Shown here one piece after another: positions 6,234 to 29,223 of a stretch of 64,000 bases of DNA. This DNA is from Minisyncoccota bacterium. GTDB lineage: Bacteria; Patescibacteriota; Minisyncoccia; Phycocordibacterales; JBAYGS01. How positions within the stretch are numbered: position 1 is the first letter of the stretch; each line of letters begins with the position of its first letter. The position numbers were made by a program, and so were the translations under genes. The DNA lies in the NCBI GenBank assembly GCA_041666545.1, contig JBAYGS010000004.1, positions 8,610 to 72,609 on the forward strand. Direction: 5' to 3'. Under the pieces are notes generated by a model that saw only the letters and a program-made list of their open reading frames with translations, was not told the origin of the DNA and did no database searches.

Positions 6234-6265
<32 letters not shown>

Positions 6266-6496: not shown

Positions 6497-6642
6497 AGCA
6501 CTTTGCGCGGAAGCGCAAAGTGAGTTGAAAGTGAAAAGTTTATAAAGTCTGTAAAGTAAAGCAAAGAGCTCTGCTTTATGAACTTTCAACTTTATAACTT
6601 TATAAACTCACTTTGTTTGTTTGCGAACAAAGTGCTGGGAGG
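6497..6642 (+). repeat. Hairpin-ended expansion element (IVS) within the 16S (~E. coli 1130 region), copy 2
   Basis: Starts cagcactttgcgcggaagcgcaaagtg and ends cactttgtttgtttgcgaacaaagtgctggg. Inserted between gactgccc and ggaggaaggcgaggatgacg. Confidence 0.55.
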
Positions 6643-6863
6643 AAGGCGAGGATGACGCCAGGTCAGCATGGCCCTTTGATACCCTGGGCCACACACGTGA
6701 TACAATGCCGATTACAACGGGATGCGACGGGGAAACCCTGAGCCAACCCTAAGAAAAATCGGCCAAGTTCGGATTGAGGTCTGCAACTCGACCTCATGAA
6801 GCTGGAATCGCTAGTAATCACAGGTCAGCTATACTGTGGTGAATACGTTCTCAAGTCTTGTAC

Positions 6864-9794: not shown

Positions 9795-9868
9795 GCGCGT
9801 ATAGCTCAGGTGGTTAGAGCGCGTCACTGATAATGACGAGGTCCCACGTTCAACTCGTGGTACGCGCA
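9795..9868 (+). tRNA. tRNA-Ile (anticodon GAT)
   Basis: 74 nt. Acceptor gcgcgta/tacgcgc. D-arm gctc-aggtggtta-gagc. Anticodon arm cgtca-CTGATAA-tgacg. T-arm ccacg-ttcaact-cgtgg. Discriminator A. No encoded CCA. Confidence 0.8.
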
Positions 9869-9936
9869 CATTGTCCGGATGAGGGATTTTGCTTCTTGAA
9901 TGTAGAGCGGTAAAATCATCTCCCAGATGGTTTTAC

Positions 9937-11512: not shown

Positions 11513-11684
11513 TATAAGGTGAGGCCCCTTGGCGGGCTTGCTTTTTTTCTCAAGATATGCTATAATTCATAACAGAACGGTACCTTGTAATTGCAAGGAA
11601 ATCCTGCAGAAGACACGCCCTAAACCGCTTGTTGCGGTCGGGTAAAACCACGGGGTTATAGCCCCACAGAAAGAAAGGAAGACA

Positions 11685-13437: not shown

Positions 13438-14448
13438 ATGAAAACAAACAAAATGCTGGAAGCTGGCAACCAAACCATCAAGGCGCGTCGCGGCGTGGTG
13501 AAGTTTGTGTCCCGCACCAAGGGATACGGTTTCGTCACCGGCGTCGAAGGCGTGGGTGGCCAGGATGTCTGGTTCCCGATTGACGACATCGGCAACATCA
13601 TCGCTGGCGATAACCATCCCAGGATCCTGCGCGACAACCGTGTGCAGCTCTTCCCGGGAACCGTGGTCATGATTCTCGCGCCGTTCGACGGCAGGGGGAG
13701 TCTGGCGACCGATGGGGTCGGACGGCTCATGGATTACGTCGACGCCGAGCGCGAAATCGCGAAGCGGCCGTACTTCCGGGTCATGCATCTGGACACGCGT
13801 TTCAACGGTCAGAAGATGACCGCGGGCGCGCGCGAGGTGCAGTACGCTGAAGGCACACTGGCCCAGCTGGAACGGGAGTTTCCGATCGGCACGCCGAACG
13901 ATCCGTTGGCGAAGGGCTATAAGACGGCGGTGGTGACGGTTCCGGCGGTTCGCTGGGATCGGCGCCAGGCCGACGGGAGCTGGAAGGTGCAAAGCACCGA
14001 TCCTCGGCGTTGGGCGCAAGCTCCGGAGCCGAAGGTTCCGGCGGTCATGCTCCAGCCGATTGCGAAGCCGACCGGGACTCCAGCGCCTCTGATGGTTCGG
14101 GTGCTCAAGGTCGGTGCCGGTGGCGGCACGCAGGTCTGGGCCGGTCCCATCGTCGAGTTGAGCAAGTCCACGGAGTTCACCGGGGCTGGCTACACCGTCG
14201 AGAAGGTCGACGGCACGGTCAATGGCGAAGTCGCCTGGACCGAGATCGCTGACCCGCGCGCGAAGGTCGCTCCGAGCGTGCCGACTCCGGCCCGCCAAAA
14301 GGCCGCCAAGCCGGCTCAACCCGTCAAGGGTTCCGGCCAGACCGCCCCCACTGGCGTGTCGGTCGCCCCGGCCAAGAAGGCGAAGTCGGTGCAGACGGTC
14401 AAGGGCCTCGACGCCCTGTCCATCGCCCCGGCTCCGGCTGGCAAGTAG
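13438..14448 (+). CDS. Cold-shock-domain-like N-terminus protein with K/A/P-rich histone-H1-like C-terminal tail; hypothetical
   Basis: GVVKFVSRTKGYGFVTGVEGVGGQDVWFPIDDI resembles a CSD (GxVKWFNxxKGFGFI...DVFxH). The C-terminus ARQKAAKPAQPVKGSGQTAPTGVSVAPAKKAKSVQTVK is low-complexity. ATG at 13438 (the track's TTG start at 13411 is also possible). GC ~63%. Confidence 0.5.
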   Translation: MKTNKMLEAGNQTIKARRGVVKFVSRTKGYGFVTGVEGVGGQDVWFPIDDIGNIIAGDNHPRILRDNRVQLFPGTVVMILAPFDGRGSLATDGVGRLMDYVDAEREIAKRPYFRVMHLDTRFNGQKMTAGAREVQYAEGTLAQLEREFPIGTPNDPLAKGYKTAVVTVPAVRWDRRQADGSWKVQSTDPRRWAQAPEPKVPAVMLQPIAKPTGTPAPLMVRVLKVGAGGGTQVWAGPIVELSKSTEFTGAGYTVEKVDGTVNGEVAWTEIADPRAKVAPSVPTPARQKAAKPAQPVKGSGQTAPTGVSVAPAKKAKSVQTVKGLDALSIAPAPAGK

Positions 14449-15229: not shown

Positions 15230-15256
15230 ATTTGTGTAAAGTTTTCCGACTCCTTC

Positions 15257-15304
15257 TTTTGGTTATTGTTTCTTGGTTATTGATTATTGTTCGAGGGTTC
15301 TTAA
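15257..15304 (+). repeat. 'ggttattg'-rich spacer plus partial 3' end of the 35-bp repeat
   Basis: ttttggttattgtttcttggttattgattattgtt followed by cgagggttcttaac (matches the repeat 3' end aagggttctcaac). Confidence 0.5.
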
Positions 15305-15311
15305 CTATCTT

Positions 15312-15346
15312 CATATTCGTGTGCCCTATTTGTAAGGGTTCTCAAC
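15312..15346 (+). repeat. 35-bp repeat family, copy B (forward)
   Basis: catattcgtgtgccctatttgtaagggttctcaac. Confidence 0.7.
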
Positions 15347-15405
15347 TGTTTTCTTTTCCCAGTTATCCTGCTATTCTTGAGCAGAAAGTTCTTCCCAAGG
15401 TTTTT

Positions 15406-16032
15406 ATGAAAGCTTTTGAATTCCGATTCGGTCCGAATGGTAAGGCTGTCTGGACTATTGGTATCGGTCGCGAGGTTTTCAAATTTCGCGACAAGACTTG
15501 TCACGGCTTGTCGCTGGGACAGGAAGGTTGTCGGCATCTTGGCCGCAACGGCAACGAAAAAATCCTGTTCGATCGATCTCAACCGCCGATTGTTGATGCC
15601 AGTTGCGCTCGGGTCCTGGAGTGCTCGATTACGGCAGTTTCTACCAGGAAAAAGGACCGTCGGCCGGCTTACCGTTCGCACCACTTTATCTTATCAGCTC
15701 CTCGTGATAACGACTCCAGAATTCTGGTCAGGGTTGTCTCGAGGTCGTTGCTCAACAGGTATCGTTCGAGCGCTGATGGTAAAGTGAGCTTTCTTAAAGA
15801 CCCTACTCGACAGCCGATCGCGCTCGGTTTTGGTCATAATGTCTTCAATGATCTAAACAGTGGTGTCTGGACCGACGAGCTCTTGATTATGAATCTCGGC
15901 GACGCCGTGAATGTTCATCCGGCCGGAATCCAGACCGTATTCTTCGATCAAGTTTTATATTATGATGACCCTGCCAGTCTTCCTATGTGTGTGGCTGGCT
16001 ATGGCTATAAGCGCGATCGGCATTTGGACTGA
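15406..16032 (+). CDS. Hypothetical protein (209 aa from ATG 15406; track ORF starts TTG 15232)
   Basis: MKAFEFRFGPNGKAVWTIGIGREVFKF... Preferred start is downstream of repeat copy B. Own terminator. Confidence 0.4.
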   Translation: MKAFEFRFGPNGKAVWTIGIGREVFKFRDKTCHGLSLGQEGCRHLGRNGNEKILFDRSQPPIVDASCARVLECSITAVSTRKKDRRPAYRSHHFILSAPRDNDSRILVRVVSRSLLNRYRSSADGKVSFLKDPTRQPIALGFGHNVFNDLNSGVWTDELLIMNLGDAVNVHPAGIQTVFFDQVLYYDDPASLPMCVAGYGYKRDRHLD

Positions 16033-16107: not shown

Positions 16108-16143
16108 CGTTTTTTAATGCTATGGTCGTGCTATGATGGCGTC

Positions 16144-17487
16144 ATGAAAATTCCAGATGGCTATTTCAAGGGTAAAAAAATAACGGTAATGGGACTGGGT
16201 CTTTTGGGTCGGGGGGTGGGGGATATCAAATTTCTGGCCGAAGCCGGGGCTGATTTGATTGTGACTGATTTGAAATCTGAGGATGTTCTTAGTCCATCTT
16301 TGAAACAACTTCAAAATCTTAGAACTTCAAAACCAATAAACTTTGTCCTGGGCGAGCACCGTCTAGAAGATTTTAGAAATCGAGATTTTATTCTGAAAGC
16401 GGCCGGTGTTCCGTTGGATTCAGTTTATATTACTGAAGCAAAAAAATGCTGGATTCCAATAAAGATGAGTGCCTCCTGGTTTGCGGAATTGGCCGAAGGA
16501 GTAAAAATTGTCGGAGTGACCGGCACGCGCGGGAAATCAACCACCACAGTTTTAATTTACGAAATTCTCAAAAAGGCCGGCCGGCAAGTTTTTCTGGGTG
16601 GTAATATTCGAGGGGTTTCGACTCTGGCATTTCTTAACGAGGCTAAGCCTGGAGATATTGCAGTTTTGGAATTGGATTCCTGGCAACTCCAAGGTTTTGG
16701 CGAGGCCGAATTTTCACCTCAAGTGGCAGTATTTACGACTTTTCTCGATGACCATCTGAATTATTATAAAGGCGATAGAGATATGTATTTTGAAGACAAA
16801 GCCAATATTTTTAAATACCAGAAAAAAGGCGACGTTTTGGTGGTTAGCGAGATGGTCACGGAAGATGCAAGATTCAGGATTCATGATTCAAGAATGAAAA
16901 TAGCAAAGAAGGAAGAGGTGCCAAAAGATTGGAAGATACAAATTCCCGGCGAGCACAATCTTTCAAATATCGCCTGCGCTTTTGAGGCGGTGAAGGTGCT
17001 CGGGGTGCCCTTGGCAACAATCAAGGAGGCGGTCGAGGAGTTTAAAGGAGTCGAGGGACGCCTGCAAGATCTCGGAATTTTCGACGGGGTGAGGATTTAT
17101 AATGACAATAATGCCACTACACCCGACGCGACAGTCGCCGCCCTAAAAGCTTTGAATAAAAATATAATTTTAATTTGTGGCGGGTCGGACAAGGGTTTAG
17201 ATATGACGGCCTTAGTTACGGAAATTCCTAAACATTGTAAAGCGATCGTTTTGCTTTCCGGCTCTGGTTCTCTTTCACTACTCACTACTCACTACTCACT
17301 ACCAACTAAAGTGGAAATGAAAGAGGTCGCAAATTTAGGCCAAGCACTGGACGCATCACTCAGGTTGGCCGCTAAAGGAGACATTATTATTTTCAGTCCT
17401 GCTTTTGCCTCATTCGGTTTGTTCAAAAATGAGTATGACCGCAATGATCAGTTTTTGGAATTGGTTGAGAAATTAAAAAACCGATAA
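16144..17487 (+). CDS. murD: UDP-N-acetylmuramoyl-L-alanine--D-glutamate ligase MurD
   Basis: KKITVMGLGLLGRG N-terminal Rossmann, GVTGTRGKSTTT P-loop, C-terminal SPAFASFGLF. Start preferred at ATG 16144 (MKIPDG...); the track start at 16117 is in-frame. Confidence 0.85.
   Translation: MKIPDGYFKGKKITVMGLGLLGRGVGDIKFLAEAGADLIVTDLKSEDVLSPSLKQLQNLRTSKPINFVLGEHRLEDFRNRDFILKAAGVPLDSVYITEAKKCWIPIKMSASWFAELAEGVKIVGVTGTRGKSTTTVLIYEILKKAGRQVFLGGNIRGVSTLAFLNEAKPGDIAVLELDSWQLQGFGEAEFSPQVAVFTTFLDDHLNYYKGDRDMYFEDKANIFKYQKKGDVLVVSEMVTEDARFRIHDSRMKIAKKEEVPKDWKIQIPGEHNLSNIACAFEAVKVLGVPLATIKEAVEEFKGVEGRLQDLGIFDGVRIYNDNNATTPDATVAALKALNKNIILICGGSDKGLDMTALVTEIPKHCKAIVLLSGSGSLSLLTTHYSLPTKVEMKEVANLGQALDASLRLAAKGDIIIFSPAFASFGLFKNEYDRNDQFLELVEKLKNR
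17270..17305 (+). repeat. (CACTACT)n heptamer tandem repeat segment, in-frame inside murD
   Basis: ctctttcactactcactactcactactcactaccaact encodes SLSLLTTHYSLPTK. Near-identical to 28814-28852. Confidence 0.7.
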
Positions 17488-17519
17488 CCTTGCGGTCATC
17501 GGTGAAGTTTAATCAGAAA

Positions 17520-18416
17520 CTAGAATCGGTTTACCACGACCAGATTCCGTTTTTTGCTGTCGGGTCCGTTGCCAGCCCGCCTGCAAGACCAGAGAGCAAA
17601 GTCACCGCTTGAATCCTTGTCGCCAAAGGTGTCGAGACCGTCATGAAACGGGACAGTCGGTTCGACTTTACCGAAGGACCTGAACTGTCTTGCAATCAGT
17701 AGCTCCAAGTCGAGACAGCCCAGGTCGGGGCTTCCTAAAAATACCTCATGACCAAAATGTTTGGTCAGGTAGCGAATCATTGACCGGTTACGTTCGCCGT
17801 ATGTCACCTCGTGGACACTGTGGCAGAAATTACGGCCGGCAATTCCGCAGGTGATGAAGAAGCGTAAGTTTTTCGGACGCTCACCTTGGAAACTCTTGAG
17901 AGCATTTCGGACCACTGATTGGTACAAATGAGTCCCAAAACCTTGGCCGATGGCCACACGGTCGATAACTGATTCTCGGCCAGCGTGAAAGACAACGGTT
18001 TTGTCGGTTTCAGTGCTCCAGAGGATTACCGTCGGGCAATCGGCCGAGGAGATCATGAAACTGTGCCAAGCCGGCAACTCAATTCCGTCAGCTTCGCCGT
18101 TTACCATGGGTGTTTTTTCGACTGGGCCGCTGACTTCCGTCCCGCGCAGAATATTTGAGGAATCGACATGAAAACAGGTGTCGAATTCGTTGAGGCGGGC
18201 GATTCGCCGGTTGAACTTTGAGGCGTTGGGCGCATAGAAAGTTCGGACGGCAAAACTTGAACAGACTCGGGCAATCATCGGACGGAAATTGCTTGCAATC
18301 GGCTTTCTCAATTGTTCCAGATTCCAATCAATTATCTGATCTTGGATTTTTCGGCCGAAGACAGAGACAACCAAGCGATCATGCAGGGCTTTCGACCATA
18401 AAGGGGCGGGTTTCAT
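17520..18416 (-). CDS. Laccase-domain / YfiH (PgeF) family protein, putative peptidoglycan editing factor
   Basis: 298 aa. ADCPTVILW...VVFHAGRESV matches the ADCVPVLL...HAGWRG signature of DUF152/PgeF. Confidence 0.55.
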   Translation of the reverse strand: MKPAPLWSKALHDRLVVSVFGRKIQDQIIDWNLEQLRKPIASNFRPMIARVCSSFAVRTFYAPNASKFNRRIARLNEFDTCFHVDSSNILRGTEVSGPVEKTPMVNGEADGIELPAWHSFMISSADCPTVILWSTETDKTVVFHAGRESVIDRVAIGQGFGTHLYQSVVRNALKSFQGERPKNLRFFITCGIAGRNFCHSVHEVTYGERNRSMIRYLTKHFGHEVFLGSPDLGCLDLELLIARQFRSFGKVEPTVPFHDGLDTFGDKDSSGDFALWSCRRAGNGPDSKKRNLVVVNRF

Positions 18417-18519
18417 TTGTCCTTTCTTTTGATGAGCTATTCTTGGGTGATTCTACCCGCTTGGCCAAAAGTGTCAATTGATTGCTTTTGTTTTGGTATT
18501 TTTTTGCTAAGATGACCCT

Positions 18520-19848
18520 ATGGCTTTAAATTTGAATGAGGTCCGGAAAGTTTATTTTCTAGGCATTGGTGGGATCGGTATTTCGGCGATTGCCCGGATG
18601 TTTTTGGCTCGAGGTGTCAAGGTGTCCGGTTCCGATATCGGCGAAAGCGAGATAACTAAAGAGCTGGTTAGGCTTGGAGCAAAAATTATTTTTGGCCAAG
18701 ATTTGAATTTGATTCCCAAGGATTCAGATCTGATCATATATACCAAAGCCCTTGAGGTTTCAGCTCCGGATTTTTTGAAGCAAGTTAAATCTTTGAACAT
18801 TCCCGTTTTGTCTTATCCGGAAACTTTGTCTTTGATTTCGAAAGGTAAATTTACTATCGCGATTGCCGGGACACACGGTAAGACCACGACGACCGCGATG
18901 ATCGGGAAAATTATGATGGACGGAAAGTGTGATCCCACCCTGATTGTCGGCTCTTTGATTCAAGGTCCGACCTTGGATCGGGAAGAAGGTCGGACCTTTG
19001 CTACGAATTTTGTAAGCGGCAAAAGCGATTACTTTGTGATTGAGGCTGATGAATATCGGCGGGCCTTTCTCAATCTTTACCCGAAGATTTTAGTGATTAC
19101 CAATATTGATGCTGATCATTTGGACTATTATAAAGATTTGGAAGATGTTCAAAATGCTTTTGTCGAGTTGGTCGCCAAAGTGCCCAAAGATGGCATTTTG
19201 ATTTGTAATCCCAATTTGCCAAATTTGGCGCCGGTTTTGGATTGCGCCGCCTGCGCGATTTTGGACTACAGCTCGACTGATATTTCCGAGCTCAAACTTA
19301 AAGTGCCAGGTCGTCACAATCGCGAGAACGCACAGGCGGCGCTAACTCTCGCCGGAGTTCTGGGAATTGATCAAAAAGTGGCCCGAAAATCTCTCGAAAA
19401 TTTCTCTGGTACTTGGCGCCGTTTTGAATACAAAGGGGAGACCAAGTCTGGGGCTTTGGTTTATGACGATTATGCCCATAACCCGCACAAAATACGGGCG
19501 GCGCTTCAGGGTGCACGAGAGTTGTATCCAAAATCCAAAATTTTTGCTGTCTTTCAGCCACATCTTTTTAGTCGGACTAAAACCCTACTTTCAGAATTTG
19601 GTCAGAGTTTCGAGGATGCCAATGAAGTTTTGCTTTTGCCGATCTATCCCGCCCGCGAGGTCTTTGATGCTTCTATTAATTCTGAAATGCTGGGTGAGAA
19701 AATAAAATCAAATGGGCAGACAGTAAGAAATTTCCATGATTTTAATTCTGCTGCAAACTATTTAAAAACTCACTCCCAAAAAGGTGATATTGTCATGATT
19801 ATTGGAGCAGGGGATATAAATAATCTAACCCGACAGATTCTGAAATGA
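18520..19848 (+). CDS. murC: UDP-N-acetylmuramate--L-alanine ligase MurC
   Basis: YFLGIGGIGISAIARMF..., GTHGKTTTTAMIG P-loop, Mur ligase central and C-terminal domains. Confidence 0.9.
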   Translation: MALNLNEVRKVYFLGIGGIGISAIARMFLARGVKVSGSDIGESEITKELVRLGAKIIFGQDLNLIPKDSDLIIYTKALEVSAPDFLKQVKSLNIPVLSYPETLSLISKGKFTIAIAGTHGKTTTTAMIGKIMMDGKCDPTLIVGSLIQGPTLDREEGRTFATNFVSGKSDYFVIEADEYRRAFLNLYPKILVITNIDADHLDYYKDLEDVQNAFVELVAKVPKDGILICNPNLPNLAPVLDCAACAILDYSSTDISELKLKVPGRHNRENAQAALTLAGVLGIDQKVARKSLENFSGTWRRFEYKGETKSGALVYDDYAHNPHKIRAALQGARELYPKSKIFAVFQPHLFSRTKTLLSEFGQSFEDANEVLLLPIYPAREVFDASINSEMLGEKIKSNGQTVRNFHDFNSAANYLKTHSQKGDIVMIIGAGDINNLTRQILK

Positions 19849-19879
19849 CTTTTAACTAAGTCGCTGGTAATTAAAAGTA

Positions 19880-19909
19880 TATTCTGATATTCTTGAGAAC
19901 ATCAGAATA
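19880..19909 (+). promoter_or_regulatory. 30-nt palindromic operator-like motif upstream of the ArsR-family gene (copy 1)
   Basis: tattctgatattcttgagaacatcagaata contains the inverted repeat ATTCTGAT...ATCAGAAT. A second copy is at 20190-20219. Confidence 0.4.
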
Positions 19910-19935
19910 GTCAGTCGATTCTTTAACTTGGGTAA

Positions 19936-20220
19936 ATGGCAAAATTGGATCATAAAACTTATCGGGCTCTAGAGCGATTGGTGCGCGGGTTTTCTAATCA
20001 CCGACGAATTGAAATGCTTAATCTTGTAGAAAATAATCCGGAGCTATCTGTTGAGGAAATTTCTAGAAAATTGAATATTAATTATAAAACTACCGCGGAT
20101 CACCTGCGACGCCTGACAATTGCCGGGCTATTATTGAAGAGATCGGATTCAGTTTCGATTAGACACAAACTGACTTCGCGTGCTAACCATGTTCTGAAGT
20201 TCTTGAGAACATTAGAATAA
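19936..20220 (+). CDS. ArsR/SmtB-family winged-helix transcriptional regulator
   Basis: 94 aa. HRRIEMLNLVENNPELSVEEISRKLNINYKTTADHLRRLTIAGLL is an HTH_5-type motif. Confidence 0.6.
   Translation: MAKLDHKTYRALERLVRGFSNHRRIEMLNLVENNPELSVEEISRKLNINYKTTADHLRRLTIAGLLLKRSDSVSIRHKLTSRANHVLKFLRTLE
20190..20219 (+). promoter_or_regulatory. Second copy of the 30-nt operator-like motif, overlapping the arsR 3' end and just upstream of rsmI
   Basis: tgttctgaagttcttgagaacattagaata, 25/30 identical to copy 1. Shares the core TTCTTGAGAACAT. Confidence 0.35.
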
Positions 20221-20229
20221 TAAAAAATT

Positions 20230-20904
20230 ATGGGGACACTTTTTGTTATAGGGACACCAATTGGTAATCTGGAGGATATCACTTTACGGGCTTTGAGAAT
20301 TTTCAAAGAGGTTGATGTGATTTTGTGTGAGGATACTCGCACGACTCAAAATTTGCTCAAGCATTATCAGATTATCGACAAGAGGCTTTCGGCTTACAAC
20401 GACCAGAAGAGTGGCATTTCGGCCGAGAAGGCGATTGCATGGCTTGAGGAGGGGATGAATCTGGCTTTGGTGACGGATGCCGGGACACCGGGAATTTCCG
20501 ATCCTGGCTCAATGCTGGTCAAAGCTGTCAGGGAAAAAATGCCGGAAGTAAAAATTGAGTCGGTGCCGGGACCGAGCGCGCTTACCTCGGCGTTATCAAT
20601 CTCAGGTCTTTTGATCAATGATTTTGTTTTTCTCGGATTTCTTCCGCACAAGAAGGGGAGAGAGACTTTGTTCAAAGAAATCGCTGGCATGGAAAGAGCG
20701 GCCATTTTCTACGAATCGCCACATCGGATTTTGAAAACCTTGGAATCACTTCAGAAATTTTCTCCGGAGAAAAAAATTACGATTGTTAAAGAATTGACCA
20801 AAATCCACGAAGAAGTCATTTCTGGCACCGCTTCCGAAGCCCTAGAATTTTTTGCTAAAAATAAGGACAAAGTAAGAGGGGAGTTTGTTGTAATTGTAAA
20901 CTAA
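20230..20904 (+). CDS. rsmI: 16S rRNA (cytidine1402-2'-O)-methyltransferase RsmI
   Basis: MGTLFVIGTPIGNLEDITLRALRIFKEVDVILCEDTRTTQNLL. Tetrapyrrole-methylase fold. Confidence 0.85.
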   Translation: MGTLFVIGTPIGNLEDITLRALRIFKEVDVILCEDTRTTQNLLKHYQIIDKRLSAYNDQKSGISAEKAIAWLEEGMNLALVTDAGTPGISDPGSMLVKAVREKMPEVKIESVPGPSALTSALSISGLLINDFVFLGFLPHKKGRETLFKEIAGMERAAIFYESPHRILKTLESLQKFSPEKKITIVKELTKIHEEVISGTASEALEFFAKNKDKVRGEFVVIVN

Positions 20905-20925
20905 ATACATAGGCCAGACCTATGT

Positions 20926-20954
20926 ATTGACAGAAGTTGTAATTTATGTATAGT
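20926..20954 (+). promoter_or_regulatory. Sigma70-like promoter (TTGACA-16-TATAGT) for the second island
   Basis: ttgacagaagttgtaatttatgtatagt. Preceded by the palindrome tacataggccagacctatgta. Confidence 0.45.
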
Positions 20955-21087
20955 TAGAAGTGGAAGGTTCTTTGAGTTAAACGGGTTTTAGACCCAAAAG
21001 AGCTAAAACGAGACAAGTTGGTCTTTGGCGAACACGTCTCAAACAAGGGCCTAAAGCACCAAGTGCTCGGCCAGAGAAGGACAAGTT

Positions 21088-21789
21088 ATGTGTGATAACA
21101 AGTCTGCAATCATGACGACTCGGCAGGCGGCCGAGTTGGACCATGCGTTCGGGAGAAACGGTTGGACCTCGGAGGATGTGAAGAAATTGTCGGCGGGGAA
21201 TACCTTGGTGCAAGTTCTAAGAGTTATTCGCAATCAAGCCGAAATCGTCCCTAAGCCGAAATCCCAACCCGCACTCCCAAAAATACCAGCCCCTCTTATC
21301 ATCGACCGCACCACTCCATTCAACCCTGTAGCTTTTATTGGCCAGGGTTCGACCATCTGGCGTGGGCCCAAAGATGGTGACGGTCTCATCGGCGAGGAAG
21401 AGCAGGACAAACGCTCTCTCGCTCTTACGGTATTTGATGCGTCCAAGATCACCGCCGCCAACTTCCAAACCGGTTTTTACCCTGGTGAGACGGTAATCAC
21501 CGGTGAGGTCAAATTGGTTCGGCTCACCACCCAAATGATCCAAGCCGATGCCAAGATTGCCGAGGTGCTCTACCGGGAGGAGGGTCAAAAAACCCTCCGC
21601 CACCTCTACGACACCTTCGGTGTTACCTGGTTGGAGTTTATGGGCACAGTTCTGCGCAATTATCCGTATGGCAGTCGCGGCGTCCTCCTCCTCCGCCGCA
21701 AATTCAGTGGTTTGTGGATCTGGAACCATAGCCTGATTAGTGGTCGTGATTTTGTCGCTAGTAATTGGGCTCTTGGTTTAGCAGGTTAG
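21088..21789 (+). CDS. Hypothetical protein (233 aa), GC-elevated, SD-bearing
   Basis: GAGAAGGA SD 8 nt upstream. No known domain. The antisense ORF 21217-21729 is judged spurious. Confidence 0.4.
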   Translation: MCDNKSAIMTTRQAAELDHAFGRNGWTSEDVKKLSAGNTLVQVLRVIRNQAEIVPKPKSQPALPKIPAPLIIDRTTPFNPVAFIGQGSTIWRGPKDGDGLIGEEEQDKRSLALTVFDASKITAANFQTGFYPGETVITGEVKLVRLTTQMIQADAKIAEVLYREEGQKTLRHLYDTFGVTWLEFMGTVLRNYPYGSRGVLLLRRKFSGLWIWNHSLISGRDFVASNWALGLAG

Positions 21790-21793
21790 TTAT

Positions 21794-21829
21794 CCGGCCG
21801 GAAACGCTTTGCGTTTCCGGCCTCTTTTT
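21794..21829 (+). terminator. Rho-independent terminator
   Basis: ccggccggaaacgctttgcgtttccggcc + tcttttt. Confidence 0.55.
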
Positions 21830-21935
21830 ATGCTTTTCTTCTGTTCTTATACTTATACCTATACTTCATACCTACACTATCTCCCTGTTCCACTCGTGTC
21901 TCTTTTGTGGTATAGTCGCGCCAGAAAGGATTCCT

Positions 21936-22304
21936 ATGAGCACACCGACGACGTTCCGTGCTCATCTGGAAATCGATGGGCACTTGAAAAATGGAGAGAT
22001 CCACAAGGCCCTGAAGGCAATTGATGGTTTTCCTAAACCCGAAAGAGTTGCCCAGTTGCTTAAGGTCTTGGCCAAAGTCAAAACCTACGAGCGGACTGGC
22101 AATTGGAAAGAGTGGGTGGAAACTAATTTGCACGCGCTGGCTGCCAAGTTTCTCGAGTTGGGCGAACTTACCAAGGCCGAGGAGGTGATTGCGATGATGT
22201 CTATATCCAACAAGAGACGAGGGGAGGCCGAAGCGCTTCTCAAGCAAACAGTCGCTAATATGCAGGAAGCTTCTCGGGGAGCTGATCAGATTTCGGAAGA
22301 GTAG
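21936..22304 (+). CDS. Hypothetical protein (~122 aa from ATG 21936)
   Basis: MSTPTTFRAHLEIDGHLKNGEIHKALKAIDGF... AAGGA SD. The in-frame upstream extension to 21765 is hydrophobic and low-complexity, likely not translated. Confidence 0.4.
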   Translation: MSTPTTFRAHLEIDGHLKNGEIHKALKAIDGFPKPERVAQLLKVLAKVKTYERTGNWKEWVETNLHALAAKFLELGELTKAEEVIAMMSISNKRRGEAEALLKQTVANMQEASRGADQISEE

Positions 22305-22309
22305 ACGAT

Positions 22310-22345
22310 GGCCCAAGTTTTGCTCGGCAAAACTTGGGCCTTTTA
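22310..22345 (+). terminator. Rho-independent terminator
   Basis: gcccaagttttgctcggcaaaacttgggcc + tttt. Confidence 0.6.
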
Positions 22346-22346
22346 A

Positions 22347-22483
22347 GTTGAGAACCCTTACGAATAGGGCATGCGAATAAGGATTCAATTAGGAACCGTT
22401 GGTTATTGTTTTTTGGCCATCGGTTATTTTTGCCGGTTCCAAACCCTTTATATTCGTGTGCCCTATTCGTAAGGGTTCCCAAC
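22347..22483. repeat. Complete composite unit of the 35-bp repeat family: reverse copy D (22347-22381) + 'ggttattg' hairpin spacer + forward copy E (22449-22483)
   Basis: gttgagaacccttacgaatagggcatgcgaataag ... ggaaccgttggttattgttttttggccatcggttatttttgccggttcc ... tatattcgtgtgccctattcgtaagggttcccaac. Confidence 0.7.
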
Positions 22484-22543
22484 AATTTTTACACTCCTTC
22501 CAATCTAGAGTACAATAGCTAAAGCAGTTAATTTTTAAATTTC

Positions 22544-22777
22544 ATGTCAAAAATTTCCTACATTATTTTTTTGGGTGTTCTAGTTTTTCTCGCACCATTC
22601 ACCGCTTTTCCTTCGGCTTGGAAAACTGTTTTCTATGTAGTGGCCGGATTTTTAATCGCGGTTATCGGTTCGCTCTGTCGAAAAGAAAATCGCGCCAAGG
22701 CTTTGCCAAAAGATTTCCAAGCACCAGCCGTGAGCAGTTCTTTTGTGGAAAATAATCACTCGATTCAAAATAATTGA
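22544..22777 (+). CDS. Small two-TM membrane protein, hypothetical
   Basis: 77 aa. Overlaps the start of the next gene by 4 nt. Confidence 0.35.
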   Translation: MSKISYIIFLGVLVFLAPFTAFPSAWKTVFYVVAGFLIAVIGSLCRKENRAKALPKDFQAPAVSSSFVENNHSIQNN

Positions 22778-24018
22778 TTATGCCTTGGCTTCGGTCCACA
22801 ATTAAAACTAACACTGGCCGAGCCGTTATTTTTGGCGGTATTTTGGTGGCAATAATTGTGGCGGTCGGCTATTTTCTGATTCCCAGCTTTTTGTTGCAGA
22901 CTTACTCAAGCGGTAGTGTGAACCAAGCTTTGAAGATTTTGGCCACCAGCACGCCATTTGTGGTGACACACGTGGCAACCCCGGTGCCGGTCAAGGGTAT
23001 TTATATGACCTCCTGTGTGGTTGGCTCGAAATCTTTGCGTGAAGGTCTTAAAAAAATTGCCAATGAGACCGATGTCAATTCAATAGTTATCGACATCAAA
23101 GATTTTTCAGGAAAAATTTCTTTTGAGACTGATAACCCAAAATTGAAAGGAGCGATTTCGGAACGATGTCTGGCGCGCGACATGAAGGAATTTGTCGGTG
23201 AATTGCATCAAGCAGGGATTTATGTCATCGGCCGAATCACGGTTTTTCAAGATCCTTATTATACGGCCATCCGGCCTGATTTGGCGATAAAAAAATCCAG
23301 TGACCATGAAGCGGTTTGGAAAGATTTTAAGGGTTTAAGTTTTATCGAGGCCGGAGCCAAAGATTTTTGGAGTTATATTGCCGAGCTTTCGGTTGAATCA
23401 TACAAAATTGGTTTTGATGAGTTGAACTACGACTATATCCGCTTTCCCTCGGACGGTAACATGAAAGATATTTATTATCCTTTCAGCGAGGAAACTGTCA
23501 AAGCAGATCCGGAACTCGGGATGGCCAAGGTGCTAAAATCTTTTTTTGCTTTTCTTTCGGGTGAAGTTCGGTCCAAAACCAAAGCCAAAATTTCTGCCGA
23601 CCTTTTTGGCATGACGACTACCAATCCGGATGATTTAAATATCGGCCAACTGCTGGAGTATACTTTGCCGTATTTCGATTATGTGAGCCCGATGGTTTAC
23701 CCGTCGCATTACCCGAAGGATTTTAATGGCTGGCTTGATCCGAACAAGCATCCTTATGGTGTGGTTAAATATTCGATGGACAAAGCGGTGGTGCGGGTAA
23801 AACTTTTCAATGATACGGTGGCCTCGACCAGTGTCGATGTTTTGCGACCTTGGCTTCAAGATTTTAATTACGGCGGAACTTACGGCGTGCCGGAAGTTCA
23901 GGCTCAAATGTCGGCGACTTACGATTCCGGTCTTGACTCGTGGCTTTTGTGGTCGCCGTCTAATCGCTACACAATCAAAGCACTTGGGCCAATCGCTTCA
24001 ACCACTCCGAAAGACTGA
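22774..24018 (+). CDS. Putative glycoside hydrolase-like protein (DUF4015/GHL10-like TIM-barrel), N-terminal TM anchor
   Basis: 414 aa. Motifs VIDIKDFSGKISFETD, GIYVIGRITVFQDPYY, FDELNYDYIRFPSDG are typical of the putative glycosyl hydrolase-like 10 family. Confidence 0.45.
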   Translation: MIMPWLRSTIKTNTGRAVIFGGILVAIIVAVGYFLIPSFLLQTYSSGSVNQALKILATSTPFVVTHVATPVPVKGIYMTSCVVGSKSLREGLKKIANETDVNSIVIDIKDFSGKISFETDNPKLKGAISERCLARDMKEFVGELHQAGIYVIGRITVFQDPYYTAIRPDLAIKKSSDHEAVWKDFKGLSFIEAGAKDFWSYIAELSVESYKIGFDELNYDYIRFPSDGNMKDIYYPFSEETVKADPELGMAKVLKSFFAFLSGEVRSKTKAKISADLFGMTTTNPDDLNIGQLLEYTLPYFDYVSPMVYPSHYPKDFNGWLDPNKHPYGVVKYSMDKAVVRVKLFNDTVASTSVDVLRPWLQDFNYGGTYGVPEVQAQMSATYDSGLDSWLLWSPSNRYTIKALGPIASTTPKD

Positions 24019-24023
24019 CCTCA

Positions 24024-24086
24024 TCTTATATTCATGTGCCTCGGTTATTGTTTCTTGATTATTGGTTATTGCCTCAAGGCTCCTAA
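24024..24086 (+). repeat. Degenerate/scrambled copy F of the 35-bp repeat (5' half + 'ggttattg' spacer + 3' half)
   Basis: atcttatattcatgtgcc + tcggttattgtttcttgattattggttattg + cctcaaggctcctaac. Confidence 0.4.
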
Positions 24087-24447
24087 CTGTGTATAACTCA
24101 TTGACAGCCGAAAAAACGAGGCGTAGACTTGAAAATGGATAGTTAAACGGTAGACGTGGGGTGTGAGGACGCCCCGTGCGTACCAACGTCGTTTACCATA
24201 GGAACAAAGTCAGTCGTGGAAAGTAAAGTTATGGCAAAACAAGTGAATGGCGCTCCTGTAGCGTCTGGCAAACCCAACGGTCAGTCATCTACCTGTCGGT
24301 CTCGCGCCACATCGGCGGATATTCTCGGACGTCCCTTGTCCAAGGAGCCACCGGCGGTTCGGATGACCAGTCGTTTGGGAGTGGCGGTGAGCATGGAAAT
24401 GCTCGGTGTTCCGGTTGCCGCCAGGTAATCAGTTTTGCTCAAATCAA

Positions 24448-24485
24448 CACCCCGCGGAGATTTTTCTCCGCGGGGCTTTCGTTTG
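24448..24485 (+). terminator. Rho-independent terminator
   Basis: caccccgcggagatttttctccgcggggc + tttcgttt. Confidence 0.55.
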
Positions 24486-24514
24486 CCCGTTTTTTAAACT
24501 ATAATTATTCGGTA

Positions 24515-26611
24515 ATGGCTACTCCTGAACAAGTCACATATTTTGCGCAGACTGATTATCGCAATAAACGCACACCTTTTGGCATCAAAGCCAAAGATCG
24601 AACCCGCCATGTCTATGTGATCGGTAAGACTGGTATGGGCAAGTCCACACTTCTCGAAAACATGGCCATTCAGGATATCAAGAATGGCGAAGGTTTTGCT
24701 TTTATTGACCCACACGGCAAAACGGCGGAACTTCTGCTTGATTATGTGCCGGAGAATCGGATTAAAGACGTTTTATATTTTGCGCCCTTCGATATGGATT
24801 ACCCAGTGGCTTTTAACGTGATGGAAGATGTCGGGGCAGATAAGCGACACTTGGTGGCGTCTGGTCTCATGAGTACCTTCAAAAAGATTTGGGTGGATGC
24901 TTGGTCGGCGAGAATGGAATACATTTTGAATAATACAATTTTGGCACTTTTGGAATATCCGGGTGCGACCCTGCTCGATGTGAACCGAATGCTGGCGCAG
25001 AAAGACTTTCGCAAGAAAGTCGTCGAGAATATTAAAGATGTCTCGGTCAAATCATTTTGGGTTGACGAATTTGCCAAATACACCGACAAGTTTGCGGCCG
25101 AAGCGACACCGGCGATTCAAAACAAAGTTGGTCAGTTTACTTCGAACCCACTGATTCGTAACATCATCGGTCAGCCGAAATCGACTTTTGATATCCGGCA
25201 AATGATGGATACCAAAAAAATTCTGATTATCAACCTCTCCAAAGGCAAGGTTGGCGAGACCAATGCCAACTTGTTGGGTAGTATGATGATTACCAAGATT
25301 TATCTTGGCGCCATGAGTCGTGCCGATGTGCCGGAAAAAGTTTTGAAAACTTTGCCGAACTTTTATCTCTATGTCGATGAATTTCAATCTTTTGCCAACG
25401 AGTCGTTTGCCAACATTCTCTCGGAGGCCAGAAAGTATCAATTAAACCTGACAATTGCGCACCAGTACGTCGAACAAATGTCCGAAGAAGTCCGGGCGGC
25501 GGTTTTCGGCAACGTCGGTACCATGATTTCTTTCCGAGTCGGCGCTTTCGATGCCGAGCTTTTGGAAAAGGAGTACGCGCCGCAGTTTACTGCGGAAGAT
25601 ATGGTGAACCTTGGCTTCGCGCAAATTTATCTGAAACTGATGATTGACGGTGTCAGCTCCTCGCCATTTTCGGCTCTAACTTTGCCACCAATTGCTCCGG
25701 CCGGAGTTAAGTTTACCAATGAAATTATTAAGTCTTCTCGTGAGCAATTCGCTAAGCCCCGCGTGACGGTGGAGGAGGAAATTGCCAAGGTCCAAGATGT
25801 TGGTGGTATGGGCGGGAAAATTGCCACTGCCCCGAGCGCTTCTTCCAGCACTCCTTCGGCCTATCCACCACGAGTACCAAGTCAGTCATCTCGAGATTTT
25901 TCTCGACCAGCCGGCCCGTCGGCGTCAGCAACTCCGTCAGCTCCAAGAAGTGATTTTAGAAGTCAGTCGGCGCCAAGACCGCCGGAAGCTAGAGCCGAGA
26001 GCCGTCCGTTCGAAAGCCGACCGGCTGAACCGAAAAATGAAAGACCGCCTCTTGAAGGCGCCAAAAGCTTCAAAGAAGCTCTCACTCCGCATTTGGCTAA
26101 AATTCAGGCCGAATCGGTTAAACCTGTCGAAACCCCAAAACCAATCAGCCTCAATCAGCTTAAAAAAGAGCCGGTAAGTGGACTGCCAAAGACCGAACAT
26201 AAACTTGGAGAAGGAGAGGCCTCAGATTTGAAAAAGGCTTTGGCCGATCTGATTAAGACTTCAGCTGGACCGACTGCAACTCCAACTCCGACCTCGGCCG
26301 TTCCGATCGCGACCCAAAGTGAAAAACCAAAAGTTGTGCCCGTGCCGAAAGTAGAAATTAAGCCCGCTCAAAATTCCAGTCCTCGAATTCATGAAAAGGC
26401 TTATCAAAATTCACCTAAACCGGCACCTCAAACTGCTCCAACACACCAATCTAATCAAACAAAACCGATACAGCCGGCTCGGCCGTTGCAGTCGGCCGCC
26501 CTACCTCACTCGGCTCATCAAAATCAGCCAAATAATTTTCCGCCCAAACCAAAAGGCGTGCCGGACGAGCTTTTGAAAAAAGTTCTCCAGGTTGATAAGC
26601 CGGGTCAATGA
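24515..26611 (+). CDS. TraD/TraG (VirD4)-family coupling-protein-like P-loop ATPase, soluble, with ~300-aa disordered P/S/A/K-rich C-terminal tail
   Basis: 698 aa. Walker A VIGKTGMGKST. Walker B-like LYVDEFQSF. TIAHQYVEQM. Architecture of the T4SS DNA-binding-domain/AAA-like (DUF87-related) proteins. No N-terminal TM. Confidence 0.5.
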   Translation: MATPEQVTYFAQTDYRNKRTPFGIKAKDRTRHVYVIGKTGMGKSTLLENMAIQDIKNGEGFAFIDPHGKTAELLLDYVPENRIKDVLYFAPFDMDYPVAFNVMEDVGADKRHLVASGLMSTFKKIWVDAWSARMEYILNNTILALLEYPGATLLDVNRMLAQKDFRKKVVENIKDVSVKSFWVDEFAKYTDKFAAEATPAIQNKVGQFTSNPLIRNIIGQPKSTFDIRQMMDTKKILIINLSKGKVGETNANLLGSMMITKIYLGAMSRADVPEKVLKTLPNFYLYVDEFQSFANESFANILSEARKYQLNLTIAHQYVEQMSEEVRAAVFGNVGTMISFRVGAFDAELLEKEYAPQFTAEDMVNLGFAQIYLKLMIDGVSSSPFSALTLPPIAPAGVKFTNEIIKSSREQFAKPRVTVEEEIAKVQDVGGMGGKIATAPSASSSTPSAYPPRVPSQSSRDFSRPAGPSASATPSAPRSDFRSQSAPRPPEARAESRPFESRPAEPKNERPPLEGAKSFKEALTPHLAKIQAESVKPVETPKPISLNQLKKEPVSGLPKTEHKLGEGEASDLKKALADLIKTSAGPTATPTPTSAVPIATQSEKPKVVPVPKVEIKPAQNSSPRIHEKAYQNSPKPAPQTAPTHQSNQTKPIQPARPLQSAALPHSAHQNQPNNFPPKPKGVPDELLKKVLQVDKPGQ

Positions 26612-28041
26612 AAAAGCCGTTTCTAATTTGTTTAGTCGCGATGGCCATTTGTTGGCCGGCTTTTGTTTTGGCGGCGCCAGTCATTTCGGAAATTATGTAT
26701 GATGTTGAAGGTACCGATACCGGCAGGGAATGGATGGAGGTATCAAACAACAGTAGCACCGCCATCAATTTGTCGGACTGGAAACTTTTTGAAGCCAGTA
26801 CCAATCACAAGCTGACTTTTGTGCGGGGCAGTGAGAGCGTTCCTGCTGGTGGTTATGCAATCGTGGCTGACGATCCGCAAAAATTTTTGGCGGATTGGCC
26901 AAATTTTTCCGGGACACTTTTTGACAGCACTTTTTCACTTTCGAATACCGGAGAGACCTTAATCTTAAGGTCGCCTGATTTGGTCGATGTTGATACGGTT
27001 TCCTACACGAATAATAATGGGGGAGCCGGCGACGGTAAATCACTCCAGAGGACTAATGACGATTGGTCAGCTGCGCTACCGACTCCCGGCTTAGCTTCGG
27101 CCCTGTCCGCCCCGACTCCACTGGCAGATAACAATAGTGGGAGCACGACAGTCGCCACCCTGGCCAATAATTCAGTTGGCTCGCACCGAATTGAGCCCTC
27201 AATTTATGCAGATGCGGGTGATGATCGCACAGTCGCCGCCGGTTCGGTTGGACTTTTTACCGCTCTTGCTTCGGGTTTAAAAAATGAGCCCTTGGAGGCC
27301 GAAAGATATTTCTGGACTTTTGGTGATGGCTCTTTCGCTGAAGGTAAAAAAATTTTTCACGCTTATGCCTCGCCTGGTACTTATCTCGCTATGCTTGAAA
27401 TCACTTCGGGTGCATATGTAGCCAGTGCAAGAGTGAAGGTGACAGTTGTGCCGGCTACGCTTTCGATTTTAAGTGTTTCCGGTGGCCCGCAAGGCGGTAT
27501 CACTCTTAAAAACGAAAGCATCTATGAGCTGGATTTATCATGGTGGCAGTTGGTTTCCGGTTCTAACAAATTTGTTTTTCCTAAAAATACGATTGTTTTG
27601 CCCAAAGCGACGGTCACTTTTCCGGTCTCGATAACCAGTCTCTCTGACATTAATCAGGGAGTTTCCTTGTTTTATCCTAATGGTGAACTGGCCAGCCGTT
27701 TTAGTTATGAGGCCGGTGTTTCTAAGTCGGCTGTCATAAATCCCACTCCGGTCGTGTCGGTGGCTAAAAAGTCTCCTCCGGTGACTGTTCCCAAAATGCA
27801 GATAGCCGAGCCGGTAATTGAAACTCAGGGTTTTGAACAGGCCGCTGCAGTTGGTTTAGTCACCAAAGATTTGGGCCAAAACCGGGGAGATAAATTTTCT
27901 TGGCCGTGGCTCTGGGGAGTCTTGGGTTTAGCCGTTTTGGCGGTTTCGGGAGTGTGGTATGTTAATAGAGCGAATAGTGACTCGGCTGGCATTGATACCG
28001 GCGGAGTTGCGCCGGGTGAATTTGATTTAATTGAAGAATGA
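26608..28041 (+). CDS. Secreted/cell-surface protein with lamin-tail domains and a PKD domain; signal peptide and C-terminal TM anchor
   Basis: 477 aa. The N-terminus MKKPFLICLVAMAICWPAFVLA is a signal peptide. ISEIMYDVEGTDTGREWMEV...NTGETLIL is an LTD. FWTFGDGSFAEGKKIFHAYASPGTY is a PKD. The C-terminus WPWLWGVLGLAVLAVSGVWYV is a TM. Confidence 0.6.
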   Translation: MKKPFLICLVAMAICWPAFVLAAPVISEIMYDVEGTDTGREWMEVSNNSSTAINLSDWKLFEASTNHKLTFVRGSESVPAGGYAIVADDPQKFLADWPNFSGTLFDSTFSLSNTGETLILRSPDLVDVDTVSYTNNNGGAGDGKSLQRTNDDWSAALPTPGLASALSAPTPLADNNSGSTTVATLANNSVGSHRIEPSIYADAGDDRTVAAGSVGLFTALASGLKNEPLEAERYFWTFGDGSFAEGKKIFHAYASPGTYLAMLEITSGAYVASARVKVTVVPATLSILSVSGGPQGGITLKNESIYELDLSWWQLVSGSNKFVFPKNTIVLPKATVTFPVSITSLSDINQGVSLFYPNGELASRFSYEAGVSKSAVINPTPVVSVAKKSPPVTVPKMQIAEPVIETQGFEQAAAVGLVTKDLGQNRGDKFSWPWLWGVLGLAVLAVSGVWYVNRANSDSAGIDTGGVAPGEFDLIEE

Positions 28042-28074
28042 GGGGCAGTATAAAGTATAAGTATAGATATAAGT

Positions 28075-29223
28075 ATGGAGAAAGAGAAAAAAAGAATTTT
28101 AATATTTTCTGTCGCTTATTTGCCTTTTGTTGGCGGGGCGGAAGTAGCGGTTAAAGAACTTACGGATCGGCTGACCGATTGTTATTTCGATTTGGTCACG
28201 GTCAATTTGGATGGTCGACAAAAAAAGTTGGAAACAATCGGCCGGGTAAATGTTCATCGAGTTGGAATCAGTAAAATCTGCAAATACACTTTTCCAATTA
28301 GCGGCTTTTTAAAAGCTTGGTCTTTGCAAAAAAAGAATTCTTACGATGCGACCTGGGCGATTATGGCTAACTACGCCGGCTTGGCGGGACTATTTTTTAA
28401 ATATAAATTCCCTAAGATTCCTCTCGTCCTGACTTTGCAGGAAGGCGACCCTTTGCCACACGTCAAAAAGCGAATGCTCTTGCTTTACCCGCTTTTTAAA
28501 TCACTTTTCAGAAAAGCTGATAAAATTACCGCGATTTCAAACTATTTAGCGAACTGGGCAAGAGAGATGGGGGCGACTTCACCTGTCGCCGTTGTGTCCA
28601 ACGGTGTCGAGGTGAAGAAGTTTCAAGTTTCAAGTTTCAAGTTTCAAGTTGCAGAAAAAAGACATGAGCTCGGATTTAAAGAGGAAGATGTGGTCTTGGT
28701 GACGACTTCCAGACTAGTTAAAAAAAATGCAGTTGGGGATATTATTGAATCGCTCAGATTTTTGCCCGAGAATGTGAAGTTGCTTGTTGTGGGTTCCGGT
28801 CCTCTTTTTAAATCTCTTCAACTACTCACTACTCACTACTCACTACAAACTCGCATTAAATTCGTCGGTCATGTAGTGCCAGACAAAATTCGCGAATATT
28901 TGTGGGCATCAGACATTTTCATCCGCCCCTCTCTTTCCGAAGGCTTCGGCAATTCATTTATTGAAGCCATGGCCGCTGGCCTGCCAGTGATCGCTACGCC
29001 AGTTGGTGGTATTGTCGATTTTCTTAAAGATGGAGAGACCGGCTTATTTTGCAAAGTTAATGATTCGAAGAGTATTTCTGAAGCAGTATTGAGACTCGTT
29101 AACGATCCGGCATTAAAGAATAAAATCATTGAGAATGCTTCAAAAATGGTCACAGATAAATACGATTGGCATATTGTTGCCACAGAAATGCGATCAGAAG
29201 TGTTTAATCGTTTAATTAAATAA
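28075..29223 (+). CDS. Glycosyltransferase family 4
   Basis: 382 aa. GGAEVAVKELTDRL N-terminus. C-terminal EGFGNSFIEAMAAGLPVIATPVGG motif. Contains the heptamer-repeat insert. Confidence 0.8.
   Translation: MEKEKKRILIFSVAYLPFVGGAEVAVKELTDRLTDCYFDLVTVNLDGRQKKLETIGRVNVHRVGISKICKYTFPISGFLKAWSLQKKNSYDATWAIMANYAGLAGLFFKYKFPKIPLVLTLQEGDPLPHVKKRMLLLYPLFKSLFRKADKITAISNYLANWAREMGATSPVAVVSNGVEVKKFQVSSFKFQVAEKRHELGFKEEDVVLVTTSRLVKKNAVGDIIESLRFLPENVKLLVVGSGPLFKSLQLLTTHYSLQTRIKFVGHVVPDKIREYLWASDIFIRPSLSEGFGNSFIEAMAAGLPVIATPVGGIVDFLKDGETGLFCKVNDSKSISEAVLRLVNDPALKNKIIENASKMVTDKYDWHIVATEMRSEVFNRLIK
28814..28852 (+). repeat. (CACTACT)n heptamer tandem repeat segment, in-frame inside the GT4 gene
   Basis: ctcttcaactactcactactcactactcactacaaact encodes SLQLLTTHYSLQTR. 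36/38 identical to 17270-17305 in murD. Confidence 0.7.

Follow-up and report, generated by a model that had tools for sequence, protein, structure and literature searches.

The window analysed here, a stretch of 64 kb from an uncultured member of the Minisyncoccota/Patescibacteria, carries an in-frame (CACTACT)~4 tract in each of two unrelated genes: murD and a gene for a GT4-family glycosyltransferase (hereafter GT4). The names of the closest homologues of MurD, of GT4 and of the DUF4015 protein encoded between them place the lineage in the Patescibacteria/Parcubacteria, class Paceibacteria. Each of the two genes is host to two heptamer arrays, and the features discussed below are the following (numbers beginning with L designate the loci and contigs used for comparison):

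16117..17487, + strand: murD, UDP-N-acetylmuramoylalanine--D-glutamate ligase, host of two arrays; Pfam Mur_ligase_M, Mur_ligase_C and MurD-like_N, homologues, solved MurD structures
16862..16893, + strand: degenerate heptamer array of GATTCAR units, murD "site 1", encoding RFRIHDSR; L061 and L005 have related arrays at the orthologous place
17269..17307, + strand: (CACTACT)~4 tract with shared flanks in murD, encoding SLSLLTTHYSLPT; same in L006 and L210
28075..29223, + strand: GT4-family glycosyltransferase gene, host of two arrays and head of a surface-glycan cluster; Pfam Glycos_transf_1 and Glyco_transf_4, homologues, cluster content
28618..28650, + strand: (AAGTTTC)4.7 tract, GT4 "site A", encoding KFQVSSFKFQV; polymorphic, one unit shorter in an assembly of the European Nucleotide Archive (ENA)
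28813..28851, + strand: (CACTACT)~3.7 tract with shared flanks, GT4 "site B", encoding SLQLLTTHYSLQT; same in L210

The murD block reads TCTCTT-TC-ACTACTCACTACTCACTACTCACTAC-C-AACT and the GT4 block TCTCTT-CA-ACTACTCACTACTCACTACTCACTAC-A-AACT, the core being readable in both as (ACTACTC)3 ACTAC. The two have 39 nt in common, 36 of which are identical, including 26 nt without any difference. Tandem Repeats Finder reports a period of 7 with 4.0 copies in murD and 3.7 in GT4, each at 100% match. The reading phase is the same in both tracts, giving the peptide SL.LLTTHYSL.T, and both open reading frames (ORFs) are intact. The initial annotation of this DNA, made from the sequence alone, had rightly pointed to two near-identical in-frame heptamer tracts in unrelated genes; its count of 36/38 and its coordinates are replaced by the 36/39 measured here over 39 nt. 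It had also raised the question of further copies: with a 21-nt (CACTACT)3 probe and up to 3 mismatches, only the murD and GT4 tracts are found in the 64-kb window, and 100 dinucleotide-preserving shuffles give no match at all.

Such tracts might come from an adapter or a primer, from chimeric reads or from an assembly error. The murD tract is however found identical in a Logan contig (SRR6484324, L006) and in an ENA assembly (ERZ27249449, L210), the latter also holding an identical GT4 tract, and this recurrence in independent assemblies disposes of the adapter or chimera that had been suspected. Besides, the tracts are in frame within conserved genes, whose orthologues in many unrelated metagenomes and metagenome-assembled genomes carry related arrays at the corresponding positions. 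We found no evidence in support of an artefact, yet several contigs of other assemblies break at heptamer arrays, which indicates that assemblers struggle there. An artefactual origin of the tracts thus appears extremely improbable.

The same ENA assembly gives direct evidence of slippage at the other array of GT4. Its contig ERZ27249449:k141_1363904 (L210), from the same organism, gives a 21,173-nt alignment to positions 12846-34025 of the window, free of mismatches and with 1 gap. This gap, the sole difference in 21,173 nt, is one AAGTTTC unit: 3.7 copies are present in L210 vs 4.7 in the window. GT4, intact in the window, is annotated in L210 as two ORFs of 206 aa and 177 aa, and the 206-aa product is exactly the one predicted in silico for the loss of one AAGTTTC unit. 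The public ENA assembly therefore carries the split GT4 allele instead of the intact one; in a collection of 5.8 billion protein clusters, the intact 382-aa GT4 of the window finds no match above 73% identity and its neighbours match at 100%. As the two assemblies are otherwise identical, the one-unit gap establishes that heptamer arrays in this organism do slip. A further Logan contig (L212, SRR6484324), identical to the window, ends after the fourth AAGTTTC unit, which may hint at ON/OFF switching within the population. Further independent contigs show no difference from the window between 33511 and 55100. Contigs of several independent assemblies also end within heptamer arrays (L009 at 14263-14301, L097 at its start, L207 at 11514-11553, L212 at its end), possibly because of length heterogeneity.

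The position of the CACTACT tracts in the proteins indicates that they replaced a variable segment. When MurD is aligned with 25 orthologues, the tract corresponds to a hypervariable stretch of similar length that follows a conserved G[ST]G[ST] turn, and this region exceeds the solved MurD structure 3LK7 by only 3 residues. Likewise, in an alignment with 35 GT4 orthologues, the tract sits in a variable stretch of similar length: from the GSG turn to the next strand, the base count equals that of the orthologue L207, and L208 and L209 have the same length as the window over the 96-nt region read. AlphaFold2 models, built with the orthologue alignments, reach a mean predicted local distance difference test score (pLDDT) of 90.8 for GT4 and 86.9 for MurD. 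In the GT4 model most of the site-B tract falls inside the helix 245-254, downstream of the strand 234-239 and the GSG turn, and the site-A (AAGTTTC) tract lies in the inter-domain linker, which has the lowest confidence of the model. In the MurD model the tract is a surface loop plus a short helix between the strands 374-380 and 400-404, with block pLDDT values of 78 and 68, where the C-terminal domain is modelled with least confidence. Both tracts stand in for an ancestral surface segment after a G-x-G turn, at near-equal length, and are not insertions; the addition of about 13 residues proposed in the initial annotation is not borne out.

These observations also bear on the proposal, made in the same annotation, that a small mobile or inserted element, i.e. 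a discrete element of ~38 bp, was placed in frame in both genes. The murD and GT4 tracts do share bases past the perfect repeat, and another organism (L097) has the tract in a third gene. In addition the (AAGTTCC) array at GT4 site A of L207 (~9100-9190) is interrupted by a 34-nt in-frame insertion, CCCAGTACCAGAGCAGGGCTCGATACGGGGCGAGG, so that arrays can serve as insertion sites. A parallel can be drawn with mini-elements resembling miniature inverted-repeat transposable elements, which also put one short sequence at dispersed positions, including inside genes. By contrast with these, the sequence is here a pure tandem repeat, there is no net insertion, there are no defined termini and the window holds two copies only. 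Neither terminal inverted repeats nor target duplications are visible at the tracts, and no other feature of a mobile element was found. Moreover the orthologous sites hold arrays of many different units without a strong common consensus. We consider an element of this kind very unlikely.

The comparison of orthologous sites shows how much the repeated unit varies. At the site of the murD tract, L002/L018 carry (TTTCAGA)5 and L003 and L061 carry (ATTATCA)4, with an extra array about 40 codons upstream in both cases, (CAACCCA)4 and (AAATCCG)3.5 respectively. L001, whose MurD is 64% identical, has TCACTAC TCACTAC AAACTAC TCACTAC, and L005 (77% identical) has decayed AAACTAC units, neither showing an extra upstream array. 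In GT4, a 7-residue self-identity is seen in 31/36 aligned sequences (window included) at site A and in 26/36 at site B, the residues themselves varying between orthologues; only these variable-site counts are used, since in this protein-level lag-7 test the conserved control regions were confounded by conserved motifs. At the DNA level the site-B units are CAAGTTA in L207, CAAGTTG in L209 and GAATTAC in L208. Between L207 and L209, one and the same base difference is found in most units, which points to a concerted evolution of the array by repeated contraction and expansion. As orthologues carry different heptamer arrays at the tract positions, the segments are not ancestral sequence that was conserved, and not a foreign element either, the two outcomes envisaged for an orthologue alignment in the initial annotation, but a repeat tract that turns over in place.

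Arrays of period 7 form a class in this lineage. Among perfect arrays of at least 3 copies, the window holds 3 of period 7, vs 0 in simulations, and none of any other period of 5 or more; when degenerate copies are allowed, 8 period-7 arrays are found vs 0.07 expected. We extended the analysis to 80 loci (1.22 Mb) of species-representative Paceibacteria genomes, anchored on the DUF4015 gene between murD and GT4. They contain 37 period-7 arrays, spread over 18 loci, vs at most 4 for each other period from 5 to 12 and 0 in simulated sequence. Period 7 is thus specifically over-represented here in comparison with the other periods, as it is among long simple sequence repeats (LSSRs) and short tandemly repeated repetitive (STRR) sequences. 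The arrays lie in murD, in several GT4 paralogues, in sugar-transferase (Bac_transf), TrwB-like and TP_methylase-family genes, and in intergenic DNA, where their positions include the region just 5' of tRNA genes and that right after the DUF4015 stop codon. They are not predominantly intergenic, 38/57 being inside stop-free segments of at least 120 aa; intergenic DNA is nevertheless relatively enriched, with 33% of the arrays in ~12% of the sequence.

Several individual arrays of this class can be described. Two degenerate T/G-rich heptamer arrays of the window, at 15259-15291 and 24043-24072, have GGTTATTGTTTCTTG in common. The former codes for LVIVSWLLIIV, a hydrophobic helix at the N-terminus of a hypothetical protein (ORF 15232-16032); the latter is found directly 3' of the DUF4015 stop codon, and the Campbellbacteria locus L037 likewise has an array right after that stop. 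AAACTGT/AAACTAT arrays are found immediately 5' of tRNA genes, in a promoter-like region, in L023 (7723-7761), L029 (3102-3136) and L037 (8102-8139), the unit AAACTGT upstream of tRNA genes being common to two different genomes. In L009 (4753-4784) a GAGGTTA GAGGTTA GAGGTTC array runs into a sequence resembling a tRNA T-arm, GGTTCGAGTCCTCTC, and looks like a tandem duplication of the 5' half of the T-arm. In L075 (2829-2905) two oppositely oriented heptamer arrays make a long intergenic inverted repeat, a potential hairpin.

A sequence motif common to all arrays, such as a binding site, was looked for and rejected: the units are barely more alike than letter-shuffled controls (summed distance 109 vs 123-133), part of this slight likeness stems from orthology, and no strong consensus emerges, the mean distance from the best reference being 2.2 of 7. 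This bears on the idea that selection acts on a peptide, the heptad helix LLTTHYS, or on a protein or RNA binding site, the repetitiveness being incidental and without any action through length. A few observations go in this direction: GT4 site B is confidently modelled as a canonical Rossmann helix, hydrophobic positions are preserved across differing units, perfect tracts are conserved in distant orthologues (window and L061), and arrays also occupy conserved non-coding positions such as those cited above, next to tRNA genes on their 5' side and past the stop codon of the DUF4015 gene. At the opposite, units vary freely between orthologues and between sites, the murD tract falls in the lowest-confidence part of its C-terminal domain, and a one-unit length change is observed in GT4 itself. 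A functional motif as the reason for these arrays therefore seems improbable.

As 7 is not a multiple of 3, one unit more or less leads to a truncated protein. In silico, a change of +/-1 unit in the murD tract shortens the product to 398/399 of 456 aa and removes its last 57 residues, which are conserved; in GT4 it gives products of 264/263 of 382 aa at site B and 206/199 of 382 aa at site A. Changes of +/-3 units at the murD and GT4 tracts keep the frame. The reasoning of the initial annotation on this point, that one unit inactivates and three units are neutral for the frame, is thus correct. GT4 is the first gene of a co-oriented surface-glycan cluster of roughly 25 kb (28075-~55500), which includes many GT4 genes, three Glyphos_transf, PMT_2, GT2, methyltransferases, LPG_synthase_TM, asparagine synthase and a polysaccharide-synthesis (flippase-like) gene. 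This gene content is consistent with a role of its product at the cell surface or in contacts with a host or phage, like those of phase-variable genes, and glycosyltransferases are classic targets of phase variation (lgt and lic genes). GT4 is thus a plausible phase-variable (contingency) surface-glycan gene. One further locus, L128, was considered as a one-unit-shorter allele of the window GT4 and discarded, having no protein similarity to the window.

MurD, by contrast, is a cytoplasmic ligase of peptidoglycan precursors, normally essential and not a typical target of phase variation. Phase variation of murD, as suggested in the initial annotation, finds no support in the alleles compared: the tract is identical in three assemblies, the window gene and 40 other orthologues are single-frame, and frameshifted alleles were sought among relatives to no avail, every orthologue matching in one frame. 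The sole truncated MurD (P0002/L005) has its stop codon inside the decayed array, 30 nt from the contig end, and is uninformative. For this tract, a by-product that the cell tolerates at a mild hazard is more likely than a switch.

Altogether, we think it probable that both segments are heptanucleotide simple repeats of the period-7 class common in the lineage, born by slippage and kept where the protein tolerates them, GT4 behaving as a phase-variable gene and the murD tract being no switch. Replication slippage of 7-nt units would create the arrays and keep them uniform, and those in coding DNA would last only where the fold tolerates them. Tolerant places would be the inter-domain linker of GT4 and, in the Rossmann-like C-terminal domain of either protein, the surface segment that follows the G-x-G turn. 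Three units amount to 21 nt, i.e. seven codons, so that the encoded peptide would have a heptad periodicity, which might suit an amphipathic helix. The units of an array change together, as the concerted turnover shows, and a change of a single AAGTTTC unit toggles GT4 between intact and split, as seen between the two assemblies.

Several points weigh against this explanation. Slipped-strand frameshifting, which the initial annotation had proposed for the CACTACT tracts, is observed at the AAGTTTC array of GT4 only: no copy-number variation was found at the CACTACT tracts, which are the same in the window, L006 and L210 for murD, and in the window and L210 for GT4. The AAGTTTC polymorphism is itself a single event between two assemblies, which could be a fixed difference between subpopulations. 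In murD no OFF state was seen, 0/40 other orthologues from species-representative and metagenome loci being frameshifted, and just ~5-10 of the 41 sequences compared have a strong array at the site of the murD tract, so that the conservation of position is restricted to a sub-lineage. Ordinary slippage by itself does not account for the preference for period 7 alone. It explains neither the composition of the arrays, which are A-rich and G-poor on the coding strand (G 11% vs 23%), nor the maintenance of a perfect (AAGTTTC)4.7 tract between GT4 genes that are just 59% identical (window and L061).

One might then imagine that Paceibacteria possess a DNA process specific for heptamers and going beyond slippage, which would write arrays into permissive sites of envelope genes, including the essential murD, homogenise them, and copy patches between genes and genomes. 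The CACTACT tracts of murD, of GT4 and of a distant GT4 paralogue would be its footprints. We regard such a process as unlikely; if it exists, it would lead to a distributed set of frameshift switches.

Whether heptamer repeats born by slippage also explain the likeness of the two CACTACT tracts is a separate question. A short-patch templated copying between the loci and a convergence on a commonly recurring unit seem to us about equally likely. In the first case, to which we give slightly less than an even chance, a tract of ~39 nt moved from murD to GT4 (the most likely direction) and overwrote an older array of equal length. The route would be ectopic gene conversion or a break repair primed by microhomology, either of them compatible with slippage-prone repeats.

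The identity of the two blocks at 36/39 positions, with equal copy number, boundaries and reading phase, argues for such copying. So does the 5' flank TCTCTT (Ser-Leu) shared by both, where the closest GT4 orthologues use AGTTTC (Ser-Phe), AATTTA (Asn-Leu) and AGTTTA (Ser-Leu); the codons of this flank are uncommon in the genome, TCT making up 19% of Ser codons and CTT 18% of Leu codons. Among the relatives of murD, L001 and L005 show units akin to CACTACT at the murD site (TCACTAC, AAACTAC), and the GT4 relatives have unrelated units at site B. Other loci contain comparable pairs: identical arrays in two genes are found in L209 (AATTTTC) and L037 (TAAAAAC), and L050 has a related pair, AAATCAC in a gene and an AAATTAC-consensus array in intergenic DNA. 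In L209 (963-1004/2706-2748) and L037 (222-259/21104-21139), the copy number and boundaries match between the two genes; the pair of L050 lies at 7743-7805/8893-8929.

On the other hand, the excess of same-unit pairs within loci is not significant (3/85 vs 19/1511, Fisher p = 0.11), and the flanking homology is too short for a classical RecA-dependent conversion. CACTACT arrays are besides present in at least 120 metagenome contigs, with a GC content of 28% to 73% among the matches listed, and these contigs, among the same matches, are also rich in other heptamer arrays, including TAACTGA. In scans of viral contigs CACTACT gave 20 matches vs 3-46 for control heptamers of the same composition, so it is common there and not exceptional. 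More directly, a distant GT4 paralogue of another groundwater organism (L097) carries, at the equivalent site, a tract identical to the window GT4 tract at 36/37 positions. Convergence, or an exchange wider than one between the two genes, clearly happens.

Elsewhere in the window, the 16S rRNA gene is split by a group I intron and followed by a match to group II intron domain D1-D4 and by tRNA-Ile (coordinates 4663-6890, 5597-6032, 7458-7571, 9795-9869); within the window, no match to 23S rRNA was reported. One heptamer-periodic stretch (4805-4834) belongs to the 16S rRNA gene, close to its 5' end, and another (6056-6092) comes directly after the group I intron.

The features described here largely belong to known kinds, heptanucleotide simple repeats and simple sequence repeat (SSR) contingency loci. 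According to the passages of PMC4679880 and PMC4692102 that cite Mrazek 2007, heptanucleotide repeats are the most over-represented long simple repeats in bacteria, and polymerase slippage has been proposed as their origin. Other examples are GGGAATC in Xanthomonas (PMC4692102) and TAACTGA in Beggiatoaceae and cyanobacteria (PMC4679880). Like the LSSRs of Mrazek et al. 2007 and the cyanobacterial STRR sequences, as presented in those passages, the arrays of Paceibacteria are over-represented at period 7 alone and have few copies each, one unit recurs in unrelated organisms, and arrays are also found 5' of genes and after stops. They differ from what is presented there, i.e. repeats that are mainly intergenic with one or few units dominating each genome, since about 2/3 of the arrays are here in ORFs, many units coexist, and the arrays lie at conserved sites inside conserved enzymes.

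Contingency loci include those of Haemophilus influenzae, in which intragenic heptanucleotide repeats cause frameshifts, e.g. (AATTTTG)14 in hmw1A and (AACAACC)n in a TonB-dependent receptor gene (PMC2651432). As in these loci, the tandem tract is here within an ORF, its unit is not a multiple of 3 so that a one-unit change shifts the frame, and a length difference between near-identical genomes (AAGTTTC array) switches a surface-glycan glycosyltransferase between intact and split. The tracts are however shorter, 3.7-4.7 units vs 8-38, one of them is in the normally essential murD, and arrays stay at the same positions across orthologues 55-75% identical while their units turn over. The host also differs from the host-adapted pathogens that carry such loci, being an environmental lineage of Patescibacteria. 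What is unusual here is that the arrays are mostly intragenic, that they keep conserved positions in conserved enzymes including murD, and that near-identical tracts lie in unrelated genes. The occurrence in Patescibacteria is new as far as the literature found allows to say: among the top-ranked full-text results, no paper tied heptanucleotide repeats or phase variation to this group.

We know of nothing reported on stochastic gene switching in Patescibacteria (Candidate Phyla Radiation). One practical consequence comes first: where such arrays lie, assemblies are prone to breaks and to mis-called genes, and GT4 appears as two annotated genes in one public assembly. More generally, the restriction of the arrays to period 7, their conserved positions in enzymes and the concerted replacement of their units make a clean data set on why bacteria favour heptanucleotide repeats. 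Finally, Patescibacteria are ultrasmall, and the members brought into culture to date grow while attached to host cells. GT4, at the head of a surface-glycan cluster and intact or split by one 7-nt unit, suggests the hypothesis that such bacteria may vary their surface by slippage of simple repeats, for host attachment or for escape from phages.

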